Shown here one piece after another: positions 25,690 to 28,856 of a stretch of 64,000 bases of DNA. The DNA is from an uncultured bacterium (GTDB taxonomy: Bacteria > Margulisbacteria > WOR-1 > JAKLHX01): NCBI GenBank assembly GCA_964597815.1, contig CAZQZN010000002.1:15436-79435 (forward strand), given 5' to 3'. The notes beneath the pieces are model-generated. The model did not search any database and was not told the origin of the DNA. It worked only from the letters and a program-made list of their open reading frames with translations. Position numbers and translations under genes: made by a program. Each line of letters starts with the position of its first letter. Position 1 is the first letter of the stretch.

Positions 25690-26346
25690 TCATTTTAACA
25701 GATAAAAAGTAATGTCATAATCTCCCGGAAGATAGTTTGTTGAAATAGAAATGTTTGAGGTTATTGTTTTTAAATCATCAAAAATTTTCTGAGGATCATG
25801 GAAATAAAATCTCTTTAATTCGGTTTTTTGATGCCATTTAGGTATTAAAAGAAGAGCTTTTTCAGTTTGGAAATTGACGGACAACCCTTCATTTGCGCAA
25901 GCAAAAAGATCTTTTAGTTCAGAAGTATAATGCTTTGATATATCAAAATCTTCAGAAAATTTTAAGTTGTAAAGCCCTGAACAAACAATATAATCATATC
26001 TGTTCTGGAAAATATTTTCTTCCTTCAAAACAAAATTTGCATTTGGAAAGTTTTTTCTGGCTTCATTTAACAATTCTTTATTTATGTCTGTACCAATATA
26101 GTTTACTTGCCAAGAGCTCAAAAAACCTTCATCTTTGATAAACTTATATAAATGTCCTAAACCACAGCCAAAATCCAAGAGAGAAAAATCATTATATTTT
26201 TGCCCCATTGTACAAATTTTTAAAAGCTCAACAAATCTGCAATTTTGTGTAAATGGCGATTCCCAGCTTAAAGTCCTATGGCTAAATCCATATTTTTTGA
26301 GGCGTTGTGAAAAGTACTCTAATTGCTGTTGCTCATATTGATTCAT
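25690..26346 (-). CDS. Class I SAM-dependent methyltransferase
   Basis: LLDFGCGLG motif I; YDYIVCSG. Confidence 0.85.
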   Translation of the reverse strand: MNQYEQQQLEYFSQRLKKYGFSHRTLSWESPFTQNCRFVELLKICTMGQKYNDFSLLDFGCGLGHLYKFIKDEGFLSSWQVNYIGTDINKELLNEARKNFPNANFVLKEENIFQNRYDYIVCSGLYNLKFSEDFDISKHYTSELKDLFACANEGLSVNFQTEKALLLIPKWHQKTELKRFYFHDPQKIFDDLKTITSNISISTNYLPGDYDITFYLLK

Positions 26347-26536: not shown

Positions 26537-26960
26537 TGGTGGAGCTGGCGGGAGTTAAACCCGCGTCCGAAAGGCTCAACATCCGAAGATCTACAAGCTT
26601 AGCCCTTTATTGAAGTTTCGCCTGTAAATAAAGCCAAGGGCAAGGCCATTTACAAGGCTATCCTTTCATTTAGTTTCCTCTTCCGCCCTGAAAGGAAAAG
26701 AGCAAAAGAGTATCCGATATTATGACGCCTTTACTTAGGCCTATCGGAAAACCTAAGAGACGTGATTCTCAATACTTAGGAGAATCAATTAGGCAACTTG
26801 AGCAACTGGCGCTTTTACATTAAGAAAAGTCCAGTCAACTCTCGCTACCAAACTCTCAAATGTTTCAGCATTTGATTTTTGCCGCAAAGTTTAACGAGGC
26901 TCACGGCACCTCGGCTTGCACTCCGGACCTATCACCTCCCGTCGAATTCCTTACAGCCCC
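26537..26960 (-). ncRNA. ssrA: tmRNA (424 nt)
   Basis: 5' GGGGCUG pairs with 3' CAGCUCC-ACCA including the G3.U wobble; T arm GCGGG/CCCGC; pk1 stems CGAGG/CCUCG and GCCG/CGGC; internal tag ORF; smpB nearby. Confidence 0.96.
26789..26869 (-). other. tmRNA tag reading frame: (A)AETFESLVARVDWTFLNVKAPVAQVA*
   Basis: GCU resume codon follows AAAUCAAAU just after pk1; TAA stop is followed by hairpin TGATTCTC/GAGAATCA. Confidence 0.75.
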
Positions 26961-26966
26961 ATCAAT

Positions 26967-27416
26967 TTATGTTTTTTTGACTTCTTTCTCTAATAAGGAA
27001 ATAAAATTCCTTACTTGTTCTTCATCTAAATTGCTTTCAAGAAGTTCAGCCAAATCTTGCCATGCTTTTGCTTCTTCCATCAACTCTTTGTTCTCTTTTA
27101 TTTTTTGAAGTTCTAATTCGATCTCTTTCTGCAATCTGCGATCAGCTTCTTCCATTGCAGCTTGAGGATTCAAAATTCCGGTTTCTTTTATAACCTTTTC
27201 TACTATATCCTCAAAAGACAACTCCTTCTCTTTTGCATCCATAGACAGAGCAGCCATTCTGACCGCTATTGCTTGAGAATCCAAAGCGTTTATGTCTTTG
27301 CTTACAGCCGATCTGGCCGGTGCCGTCTCTTTTCTTGTTTCATGAGTTTCATCCAATTTTTTCGGCGGTATTTGCGGAGACAGCGGCGGAGGAACTTGCC
27401 CAGGTATATTTATCAT
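26967..27416 (-). CDS. Hypothetical protein (149 aa; Pro-rich N-terminus, acidic helical body) ending 6 nt before ssrA
   Basis: AGGAGG 8 nt before ATG 27416; long open frame. Confidence 0.8.
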   Translation of the reverse strand: MINIPGQVPPPLSPQIPPKKLDETHETRKETAPARSAVSKDINALDSQAIAVRMAALSMDAKEKELSFEDIVEKVIKETGILNPQAAMEEADRRLQKEIELELQKIKENKELMEEAKAWQDLAELLESNLDEEQVRNFISLLEKEVKKT

Positions 27417-27438
27417 AATCAAAACCTCCTACATATTA

Positions 27439-27618
27439 TTATATCTTATCTTCTAACTCTAATTTTGCAAGCAAAACTGCAAGATTGGTAGCGTCTTTTT
27501 CTCTCATCTGCGGATATTCTTCTATAATCATTCTTTTAACTGATTCAACAACATCTAATCCGCTTCTATCTTTTTTTGTTGAAACCCCTTGGCTTTTGTT
27601 TTTATCTTTCTCTCTCAA
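27439..27618 (-). CDS. Small hypothetical protein, 59 aa, absent from the ORF track
   Basis: TTG start overlapping the smpB 3' end, GGAG about 10 nt upstream, fills the gap exactly; [59 protein letters not shown]. Confidence 0.6.
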
Positions 27619-28063
27619 TCAATTCTCTCTCCATTTCTCTATCAGCATCTCTCTTTTTTATTTCTCTTCTTTTGTCATACAATTTTTTACCCTTACATAA
27701 TGCTAACTCAATTTTTGCGTAATTTCCAGAAAAATATATTTTTAACGGCACAAGGACAAATCCTTTTTGCGATACTTTTCCTGCCAGCCTCCTTATTTCC
27801 GACTTTTTTAGCAACAATTTTCTGTTTCGTAAAGGATCCAGATTTTCTTTTCTTGCATAGCTATAAGGCGAAATATGCATATTGTATAAAACCATTTCCC
27901 CGTTTTCAATCTTCGCAAAACTATCTTTTAAATTGACTCTGCCAATGCGAATAGATTTTACTTCGTTCCCTTTAAGAACAATTCCTGCCTCAATAGTTTC
28001 TAAAACATAGTAATCAAAATAAGCTTTTCTGTTTTCTGCAATAATTTTTTTATATTTTGCCAT
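27602..28063 (-). CDS. smpB: SsrA-binding protein
   Basis: [40 protein letters not shown]. Confidence 0.98.
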
Positions 28064-28066
28064 AAA

Positions 28067-28771
28067 TTATTCAACCAATGAAATAACTATTTCTCTTAGA
28101 TATTCAGCCGTTTTATCAAGATCTTCATCACCAAAATCAGGATTTATTGGTTTGCCAATTTTTACTTTAACTACCGTTGGATTTACCAATAAAGAACCCT
28201 TTTTTTGAATATTATAACTTCCTGAAATTCCAATTGGCACAATTTGCGCTTTCGTTTCAAGAGCAAGCATAACAGAACCCTTTTTAAAGCTTGCAACTTT
28301 TCCATCGGGAGATCTTGTCCCTTCGGGGAAAATTAATATTGGATAGTTGTCTTTTAAATCTCTTGACAGATTCATGATAGTTTTACTTGCTAAGAGAGGA
28401 TTTTTTCTGTCAATAGGAACATCAGTCCTGTTTTTTAGATGCCAGCCAAAGATAGGTATTTTGAAGAGCTCTATTTTTGCGAGAAATCGGAAATTGGTCG
28501 GCAAAGTTGCCATGAGAATCGGAATATCAAAATTCCCCTGATGGTTGCAAACCAAAACTTTCGGCCCGGAAAAATTAAGGTTTTCTTCTCCACTCACTTC
28601 AACTTTTATACCGGCTAAATAAAGAATAGTTTTTGCCCAAATTTTTGAGATGATAAAAGATGCTTCTCTCTTATTACGGGGAAAAATGAACCAGAACAAT
28701 AAAATTATGCTTCCAAGAATGAAAAGCACAAAAAAGCATATGTAAAAAAATATTGTCTTTAATGTTCTCAT
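28067..28771 (-). CDS. plsC: 1-acyl-sn-glycerol-3-phosphate acyltransferase
   Basis: NHQGNFD, FLAKIELF, IFPEGTRS. Confidence 0.9.
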   Translation of the reverse strand: MRTLKTIFFYICFFVLFILGSIILLFWFIFPRNKREASFIISKIWAKTILYLAGIKVEVSGEENLNFSGPKVLVCNHQGNFDIPILMATLPTNFRFLAKIELFKIPIFGWHLKNRTDVPIDRKNPLLASKTIMNLSRDLKDNYPILIFPEGTRSPDGKVASFKKGSVMLALETKAQIVPIGISGSYNIQKKGSLLVNPTVVKVKIGKPINPDFGDEDLDKTAEYLREIVISLVE

Positions 28772-28856
28772 TGCCTATCGCTATTACCTATAAAATATAG
28801 CACAACAAAATCAGATGTGAAATTTTATTTTTTTTAATCGATAACAATATGACATT

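Follow-up and report, generated by a model that had tools for sequence, protein, structure and literature searches.

Nearly all bacteria carry out trans-translation, the core of which, transfer-messenger RNA (tmRNA, encoded by ssrA) and SmpB, is considered to be complete. The accessory proteins known to us are only lineage-specific, namely SspB, the back-up factors ArfA and BrfA, and RNase R. In the smpB-ssrA and rnr-smpB-ssrA clusters of E. coli and the Firmicutes, smpB is found immediately upstream of ssrA and in the same orientation. The two genes are likewise arranged in a 64,000 nucleotide (nt) stretch of DNA, hereafter the window, from an uncultured bacterium of the class WOR-1/Saganbacteria in the phylum Margulisiibacteriota (contig CAZQZN010000002.1, positions 15,436 to 79,435); here, however, two extra genes of no recognised family, the open reading frames (ORFs) ORF59 and ORF149, are inserted between them and appear to be translationally coupled to smpB. 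The literature searched contains no description of two such genes inserted in the known smpB-ssrA clusters. All coordinates refer to the window, and the whole block from plsC through smpB, ORF59 and ORF149 to the tmRNA gene lies on its minus strand. The central features are the following, with protein lengths in amino acids (aa).

27602..28063, minus strand: smpB, encoding the SsrA-binding protein (153 aa); Pfam SmpB, 3.5e-59; NCBIfam PRK05422, 1.4e-59.
27439..27618, minus strand: ORF59, with a TTG start codon and a GGAGAG motif upstream, overlapping the 3' end of smpB by 17 nt.
27425..27430, minus strand: AGGAGG Shine-Dalgarno (SD) motif, read from the sequence, 8 nt upstream of the ORF149 ATG.
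26967..27416, minus strand: ORF149, with an ATG start at 27416 (MINIPG...) and its stop codon at 26969..26967.
26537..26960, minus strand: ssrA (tmRNA, 424 nt), identified by ARAGORN; Rfam RF00023, 176.4 bits, full length.

The initial annotation of this locus had described plsC, smpB, ORF59, ORF149 and ssrA as co-oriented and tightly packed, with a 17 nt overlap between smpB and ORF59, a perfect SD motif ahead of ORF149 and a tmRNA 5' end beginning 6 nt past the ORF149 stop codon, and all of the gene calls and spacings agree with this description. SmpB matches PF01668 and TIGR00086 over its full length, scoring 199 bits (cut-off 27) and 188 bits (cut-off 119) respectively. The tmRNA covers positions 1-374 of the RF00023 model, for which the cut-off is 47 bits, and has the G3-U pair, CCA end and resume alanine codon expected of the family, as well as an acceptor pairing, GGGGCUG/CAGCUCC, read from the sequence. 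An alternative earlier start for ORF149, the TTG at 27422, would give a protein of 151 aa; as this codon is too near the SD motif, the ATG at 27416 is taken to be the true start.

ORF59 and ORF149 are genuine, vertically inherited protein coding genes restricted to a single class of Margulisiibacteriota. Full-length homologues of ORF149 were found in 60 of 61 related genomes, and an ORF149 profile matched 63 of 65 genomes from WOR-1/Saganbacteria, as against none of 81 from elsewhere in the phylum. Neither of the two unmatched class genomes gives a match to smpB either, hence the region containing the locus is missing from their assemblies. Only 29 representatives were recovered by the profile from amongst 1.84 billion proteins, whilst scanning prokaryotic genomes, one for each species, gave 48 ORF149 loci; those records that name a lineage were all assigned to Candidatus Margulisiibacteriota/Margulisbacteria, candidate division WOR-1 or Saganbacteria, the rest being labelled 'uncultured bacterium' or 'bacterium'. 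A tree of SmpB and ORF149 recovers the taxonomic families, which implies vertical inheritance, and places the two families labelled here f3 and f11 in one clade (support 98).

ORF59 itself is detected by tblastn only within the window's own family. Nevertheless, the slot between smpB and ORF149 is filled by an ORF of this type, 55-90 aa long, in around 43 of 48 class loci, and these small ORFs align as one family (consensus ..KKYTVADVY.EA..ML..EM..LK.RPLT..EE.KM..LAK.LSK.VLKEMK.I), of which ORF59 is a form with a shorter loop. Across 65 sequence pairs, nucleotide differences are concentrated at the third codon position (2018, versus 1134 at the first and 869 at the second), and single-nucleotide codon differences are more often synonymous (982) than non-synonymous (464), a signature of a translated gene. 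Together with the conservation of the family across the class, this sequence comparison supports ORF59 as a translated gene, as the initial annotation presupposes. The same annotation had pointed out that ORF59 contains the pentapeptide MREKD twice, and this does occur at residues 1-5 and 38-42, the former only with the TTG start read as methionine; as the repeat is absent from ORF59 homologues, its doubling is probably a matter of chance in a Lys/Glu-rich sequence. The AlphaFold2 (AF2) model of ORF59 is a helix-loop-helix hairpin, with helices at residues 20-34 and 40-55 and a predicted local distance difference test (pLDDT) score of 86-91. Its N-terminus is basic, disordered and poorly conserved, and in most class members the basic stretch is only a few residues long.

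In one genome of the class (G032, L084:2311-2967), the small ORF continues in frame from SmpB, giving a single fused protein of 218 aa. This fusion is unique among approximately 75 close SmpB relatives, all of the others being 155-156 aa long, and a related metagenome-assembled genome (MAG; L107) has frameshifts within the same Lys-rich stretch. Given its uniqueness and an isolate name (MFD...) taken to indicate a long-read MAG, it was rejected as a natural fusion and is probably the result of an assembly indel. Folding it as a proxy for a complex was abandoned, as MAFFT had placed the small ORFs onto the N-terminus of SmpB; hhalign showed the small ORF to be similar to neither SmpB nor ORF149.

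The position of these genes is as conserved as their sequences. The small ORF and ORF149 have smpB directly upstream in 58 of 59 class loci, which represent 13 families, with the single exception being cut by a contig end; this recurring gene order is far beyond chance. ARAGORN places tmRNA directly downstream of ORF149 in 49 loci, and cmsearch adds more, whilst the other neighbours vary. Hence the expectation arising from the initial annotation, that both ORFs should accompany smpB and ssrA in related genomes, was borne out very strongly. Sampling 40 tmRNA loci from outside the class showed 39 to be without an smpB gene nearer than 3 kb, and the rare loci in which smpB and ssrA are linked have either nothing or unrelated ORFs between them, with no ORF149-like gene; two intervening ORFs considered as divergent relatives of ORF149 (293 aa and 189 aa) were rejected as unrelated. 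Therefore the smpB-small ORF-ORF149-ssrA arrangement is a fixed cassette and a class-level innovation. In three genomes of family f3 (G010, G032 and G016), ssrA has relocated, either to a site 4-11 kb away or to another contig, despite which smpB, the small ORF and ORF149 remain together. This indicates that the invariant link is with smpB.

Within the cassette, 39 of 43 candidate start codons of small ORFs overlap the 3' end of smpB, a figure partly due to the rule used for choosing starts, and the stop codon of the small ORF overlaps the start of ORF149 by 4 nt in 18 of 34 cases. These overlapping stop and start codons indicate, at the level of the DNA sequence, that the three protein coding genes are translationally coupled. 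From the middle of smpB to ssrA, a consensus scan of the window detected neither a terminator nor, on the gene strand, any promoter-like site. In combination with gene overlaps of 4-17 nt, and with the ORF149-type stop codons that lie inside tmRNA in relatives, this is consistent with the co-transcription of ORF59 and ORF149 with the tmRNA.

The last of these features, which was unexpected, concerns the two genes at the downstream end of the cassette. In nine genomes from five families (loci L004, L022, L023, L026, L027, L031, L032, L041 and L164), the ORF149 homologue ends in Gly-Leu-stop (G GGG CTG TAA), with these three codons constituting nucleotides 2-10 of the tmRNA. In three further genomes the stop codon either ends on G1 of the tmRNA or falls just inside its 5' end, such that 12 of approximately 52 relatives have the ORF149 stop codon inside the tmRNA or ending on its first base; in seven more genomes, including that of the window, a gap of 1-8 nt separates the two. 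A similar ending, x-(A/E/G)-L, is also seen in homologues that do not overlap the tmRNA. Pairing of G1-G7 with CAGCUCC in the acceptor stem (including the G3-U pair) sets the tmRNA 5' end, and cleavage at this point by RNase P would consequently deprive ORF149 of an intact stop codon in the 12 relatives, through either its removal or its splitting. The window's own ORF149 stop codon precedes tmRNA +1 by 6 nt and so would be retained after maturation. We treat this overlap as supporting a probable functional tie to trans-translation, rather than as a mechanism.

The ORF149 protein begins with a conserved peptide, M-I/V-x-I/V-P-G followed by a Pro-rich stretch and then KK, as judged from the family alignment. 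A linker varying in both length and sequence leads into a well conserved acidic domain of around 105 aa, which includes 17 invariant alignment columns and has a net charge of about -11 by hand count. In the AF2 model, residues 1-45 are disordered and the remainder is helical (helices 46-64, 68-79, 84-129 and 132-148). Neither the ORF59 nor the ORF149 family has a significant match in Pfam, NCBIfam, PHROGs or PADLOC, and a PDB profile search and Foldseek searches with both AF2 models gave nothing with an E value below 0.01; hence the matches to families of unrelated function that might have undermined the initial annotation did not emerge. Sub-threshold and inconsistent matches to MAGE, MOZART1, UvrB, CARF/Csx1, LmuB coiled coil, YebG and GlutR_dimer were rejected as compositional; the weak matches (CARF/Csx1, UvrB, LmuB, YebG and the PDB entry 3erm) involve single members only or are typical of charged helices. 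Amongst 27 members of the ORF149 family, PADLOC assigned CARF/Csx1 to one and the LmuB coiled coil to 11, with no other consistent family. An identification of ORF149 as a HEPN or Csx1 C-terminal domain, raised by weak PADLOC and NCBIfam matches, was rejected, given this single CARF/Csx1 member and the lack of any invariant Arg or His in the family, such that no R-x4-6-H motif is conserved. Similarly, the resemblance of the ORF59 hairpin to YebG (PF07130) is limited to five of 41 family members at E values of 0.0075 or worse, the best score being 15.8 bits against a gathering threshold of 27.5 bits, and its top Foldseek match, the protein of unknown function 3erm, is also below the cut-off (E 0.6, TM 0.55). 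A two-helix hairpin is not diagnostic, and neither YebG nor 3erm has a defined mechanism.

Considering this evidence as a whole, we tentatively favour a role for the ORF59/ORF149 pair in trans-translation, working with the SmpB-tmRNA ribonucleoprotein as a partner or regulator. Such a pair could affect the assembly, stability or delivery of SmpB-tmRNA to stalled ribosomes. ORF149 has the look of a tethering protein, in which the Pro-rich N-terminal peptide would act as an anchor and the acidic helical domain, at the end of a flexible linker, could bind to SmpB, which is strongly basic, or to some other invariant component; ORF59 would be a small helical-hairpin subunit produced in step with SmpB. 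In relatives of the overlapping type, maturation of tmRNA by RNase P would leave an ORF149 message without a stop codon, or with a split one, a type of message on which tmRNA acts; the ORF149 product might then be tagged itself and kept at a low level for as long as rescue works, making feedback of the ArfA/BrfA type conceivable. The fullest form of this proposal is a dedicated SmpB-tmRNA accessory pair, invented in the ancestor of the class when smpB and ssrA were joined into one operon, with the synthesis of ORF149 wired to the maturation of tmRNA; stated in such detail, it is doubtful.

Several observations weigh against a role alongside SmpB-tmRNA. The functional link is drawn entirely from gene neighbourhood, and conserved operons can hold functionally unrelated genes, of which plsC is an example here. 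Searches of Pfam, NCBIfam, PDB and Foldseek reveal no similarity in sequence or structure between either protein and known rescue, RNA-binding or protease factors. The overlap of the ORF149 stop codon with tmRNA is absent in around 30 of 51 genomes, in which the spacing is 16-233 nt, and therefore cannot be the core of the function. The G032 fusion, being a probable indel artefact, provides no gene-fusion (Rosetta-stone) support, and the confidence of the ORF149 model is low (mean pLDDT 62, predicted TM-score 0.27).

Alternatively, ORF59 and ORF149 may be housekeeping genes, the role of which is unrelated to rescue and which have merely become fixed in the smpB transcription unit of the class. 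This we regard as somewhat unlikely. Neither sequence has a feature pointing specifically to rescue, and helical, charged proteins of low complexity would fit many roles; the presence of plsC in the block throughout the window's order also shows that unrelated genes can share the unit. However, such hitch-hiking does not readily account for genes located exactly between two rescue genes and overlapping at their codons, in the 58 loci and 13 families in which other neighbours vary, nor for their having appeared at the node where smpB and ssrA became linked, nor for an ORF149 stop codon embedded in, or ending on, the tmRNA 5' end in 12 genomes.

A different connection to trans-translation was suggested by the length of the peptide tag that the tmRNA encodes.

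26789..26869, minus strand: tmRNA tag reading frame predicted by ARAGORN, encoding AETFESLVARVDWTFLNVKAPVAQVA (26 aa) and then a stop codon, with the class-typical V-x-W core.

Tag length in the class follows the distribution of the unfoldase subunit ClpX (TIGR00382). Within the class, ClpX is found only in families f3 (6 of 6 genomes) and f11 (1 of 1), being absent from all 56 other genomes, many of which are at least 95% complete; nearly all genomes from elsewhere in the phylum have it. ClpP and Lon are present throughout the class. The gene order in f3 is clpP-clpX-lon, whereas in the window's genome lon lies directly after clpP with a gap of 45 nt (contig C8:51380-54463), indicating that clpX has been cleanly deleted; a ClpC-like ATPase having a YGF loop is encoded in this genome as well, as are ClpB and FtsH. 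The genomes of f3 and f11, which keep ClpX, have tmRNAs of 357-361 nt and tags of 9-10 aa ending in ALAA or AFAA (five from f3 being ANQEFALAA, ANPLELALAA, ASDNLALAA, ANQFEFAFAA and ANQEFALAA). By contrast, tags in the members without ClpX have 24-33 residues (median 27), excepting three ARAGORN predictions of 17-19 aa that probably involve wrong resume codons, and the median outside the class is 17 residues. Hence the loss of ClpX correlates cleanly with tag extension in the class. The root of the SmpB and ORF149 tree is weak (support 58), hence either one or two losses of ClpX are possible.

The long tags usually consist of an amphipathic core, A-D/N-V-K-x-A-L-x-x-V-x-W-x-W/F, and a Pro-Ala-rich end. 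Changes to the core in members without ClpX are predominantly synonymous (786, versus 344 non-synonymous), and its invariant Val is encoded by three different codons, hence the core is under selection at the level of the peptide. In Mycoplasma, according to PMC8403727 (citing Gur & Sauer 2008 and Ge & Karzai 2009), ClpXP is absent and a 27-residue hydrophobic/aromatic tag is read by Lon. In both cases, albeit in different phyla, the loss of ClpX coincides with a tag of around 27 residues rich in hydrophobic and aromatic residues and with the retention of Lon, and by this analogy the long tag of the class is best explained by ClpX having been lost and Lon or ClpCP having taken over. Either protease may read the tag here, as ClpP and the ClpC-like ATPase are kept and ClpCP stays a candidate alongside Lon. 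This parallel would explain the tag, and not ORF59 or ORF149. Both genes are present and equally conserved in the 56 genomes without ClpX and the seven with it, in lineages with long and short tags alike, and are therefore not tied to the long tag. Their candidate partners are accordingly those components that are invariant in the class, namely SmpB, the tmRNA body, the ribosome, Lon and ClpP.

These data bear on the possibility that ORF149, with or without ORF59, is an adaptor similar to SspB, which would bind the extended tag and tether rescued proteins to Lon or ClpCP. The tag-protease relationship has been remodelled in the class, with clpX lost, tags lengthened and the V-x-W core selected as a peptide. 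ClpC-type unfoldases, one of which is encoded by the window's genome, commonly need adaptors (MecA, ClpS, NblA). Furthermore, ORF149 has the generic layout of an adaptor, with a folded domain joined through a flexible linker of variable sequence to a conserved peptide at one terminus; SspB is built from the same parts in the mirror order, its ClpX-binding peptide being C-terminal whereas the peptide of ORF149 is N-terminal. Both would be lineage-restricted accessory proteins of trans-translation, a role that is established for SspB and inferred for ORF149. The likeness goes little further. The SspB tag-binding domain is a beta-rich dimer, whereas ORF149 is predicted to be all-helical; the two have no sequence similarity, no match to SspB (PF04386) having been found for ORF149, ORF59 or 27 and 41 members of their respective families at E values up to 0.1-1; and the sspB gene is not in the smpB-ssrA operon.

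An adaptor would also be expected to change with its substrate. Both genes are equally conserved in f3 and f11, with their ClpX and ordinary tags, such that ORF149 persists regardless of ClpX status or tag type and the long tag tracks the loss of ClpX instead. The genes also stay with smpB when ssrA moves. A site that binds the tag should co-vary with it, and yet the invariant residues of the ORF149 helical domain are kept across lineages whose tags share no motif, which lowers the case for an SspB analogue to the point at which it seems distinctly improbable. The initial annotation had offered two readings of the pair, as a lineage-specific tag adaptor or as a partner of tmRNA or SmpB; on the present comparisons the former is disfavoured and the latter appears to fit better.

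Even less probable is that one of the proteins is a back-up rescue factor like ArfA or BrfA, made from a non-stop mRNA only upon the failure of trans-translation. Non-stop mRNA control is a hallmark of both factors, and the same regulatory logic could be shared by ORF149: in the 12 overlapping relatives a cut by RNase P at tmRNA +1 would remove or split the stop codon, with the product being tagged while tmRNA is active, and in the seven genomes with short gaps 8 nt or fewer would be left after it. In this case the cleavage would be that of RNase P at the tmRNA 5' end, as opposed to RNase III or a terminator. The window's genome, which has only two genes encoding an RF-1 domain, may in addition lack ArfB. 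However, most class genomes have a third such gene, probably ArfB, and its absence was rejected as a trait of the class, there being no class pattern. The overlap is missing from most genomes, and the window retains its ORF149 stop codon. Moreover, ArfA and BrfA are small proteins of approximately 40-75 aa, the basic C-terminal tail of which is inserted into the empty mRNA channel, whereas ORF149 is twice their size, ends in an acidic domain and lacks such a tail. ORF59 is closer in size, although it has no basic C-terminus, and its basic N-terminal tail is not conserved, being much reduced in the majority of class members.

Finally, whilst ORF59 is short with a TTG start and tmRNA genes are common integration sites, the notion that the two are spurious ORFs, or the remnant of a mobile element or toxin-antitoxin system beside ssrA, is effectively refuted by a family tree that follows the taxonomic families, by synonymous-biased substitutions, by the position of the genes on the 5' side of ssrA when islands enter at the 3' end, and by the lack of an att-like repeat in the window, of a phage match and of any consistent PADLOC family.

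The cassette in the window is preceded by a further co-oriented gene and a possible promoter.

28794..28821, minus strand: promoter-like site TTCACA-16-TATATT, TG-extended, with 10 of 12 matches in the consensus scan; upstream of plsC and a candidate promoter for the operon.
28067..28771, minus strand: plsC-like 1-acylglycerol-3-phosphate acyltransferase gene (Pfam Acyltransferase, 9.4e-34), the first gene of the co-oriented block.

Promoter-like sites are in total no more numerous in this region than expected from shuffled sequence, hence the site upstream of plsC is weak evidence. The smpB start lies 3 nt past the plsC stop codon; as synteny of plsC is restricted to the window's own order, this gene is outside the conserved core. 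On the other side of the cassette, a gene for a SAM-dependent methyltransferase (25690-26346, same strand), matching several Pfam Methyltransf families scarcely above their cut-offs, lies directly downstream of ssrA and is syntenic in the closest relatives, L002 and L003. No second copy of the tmRNA 3' end was found in the window, in keeping with the earlier remark that no att duplication is visible, and with the syntenic methyltransferase gene this leaves no sign of an integrated island. The tmRNA itself has an unusual T-loop (window 26537-26575), GGGTTTAACTCCC being found in place of the usual GGTTCGA(A/T/C)TCC. This variant (UUUAAC) is common only to the closest relatives L002 and L004, with L003 having TTTGAC, and as it is confined to these nearest relatives it was rejected as a class trait linked to both genes. 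Elsewhere in the same genome, outside the window, a giant ORF of at least 4626 aa runs off the end of a contig (C8:2-13879).

The cassette therefore presents an orphan pair of genes locked between smpB and ssrA across a class, a concrete and cheaply testable candidate for a new accessory or regulatory layer of trans-translation, in which the stop codon of an ORF149 homologue can be part of the tmRNA itself. Separately, the class looks like a second independent natural case, after the Mollicutes, of ClpX loss accompanied by a greatly lengthened tag, which is useful for the study of tag-protease co-evolution and possibly a source of orthogonal degrons. Should ORF59 and ORF149 indeed be an accessory pair, with ORF149 wired to the maturation of tmRNA, they would represent both a new component and a new autoregulatory circuit, in which the rescue system tags its own cofactor.

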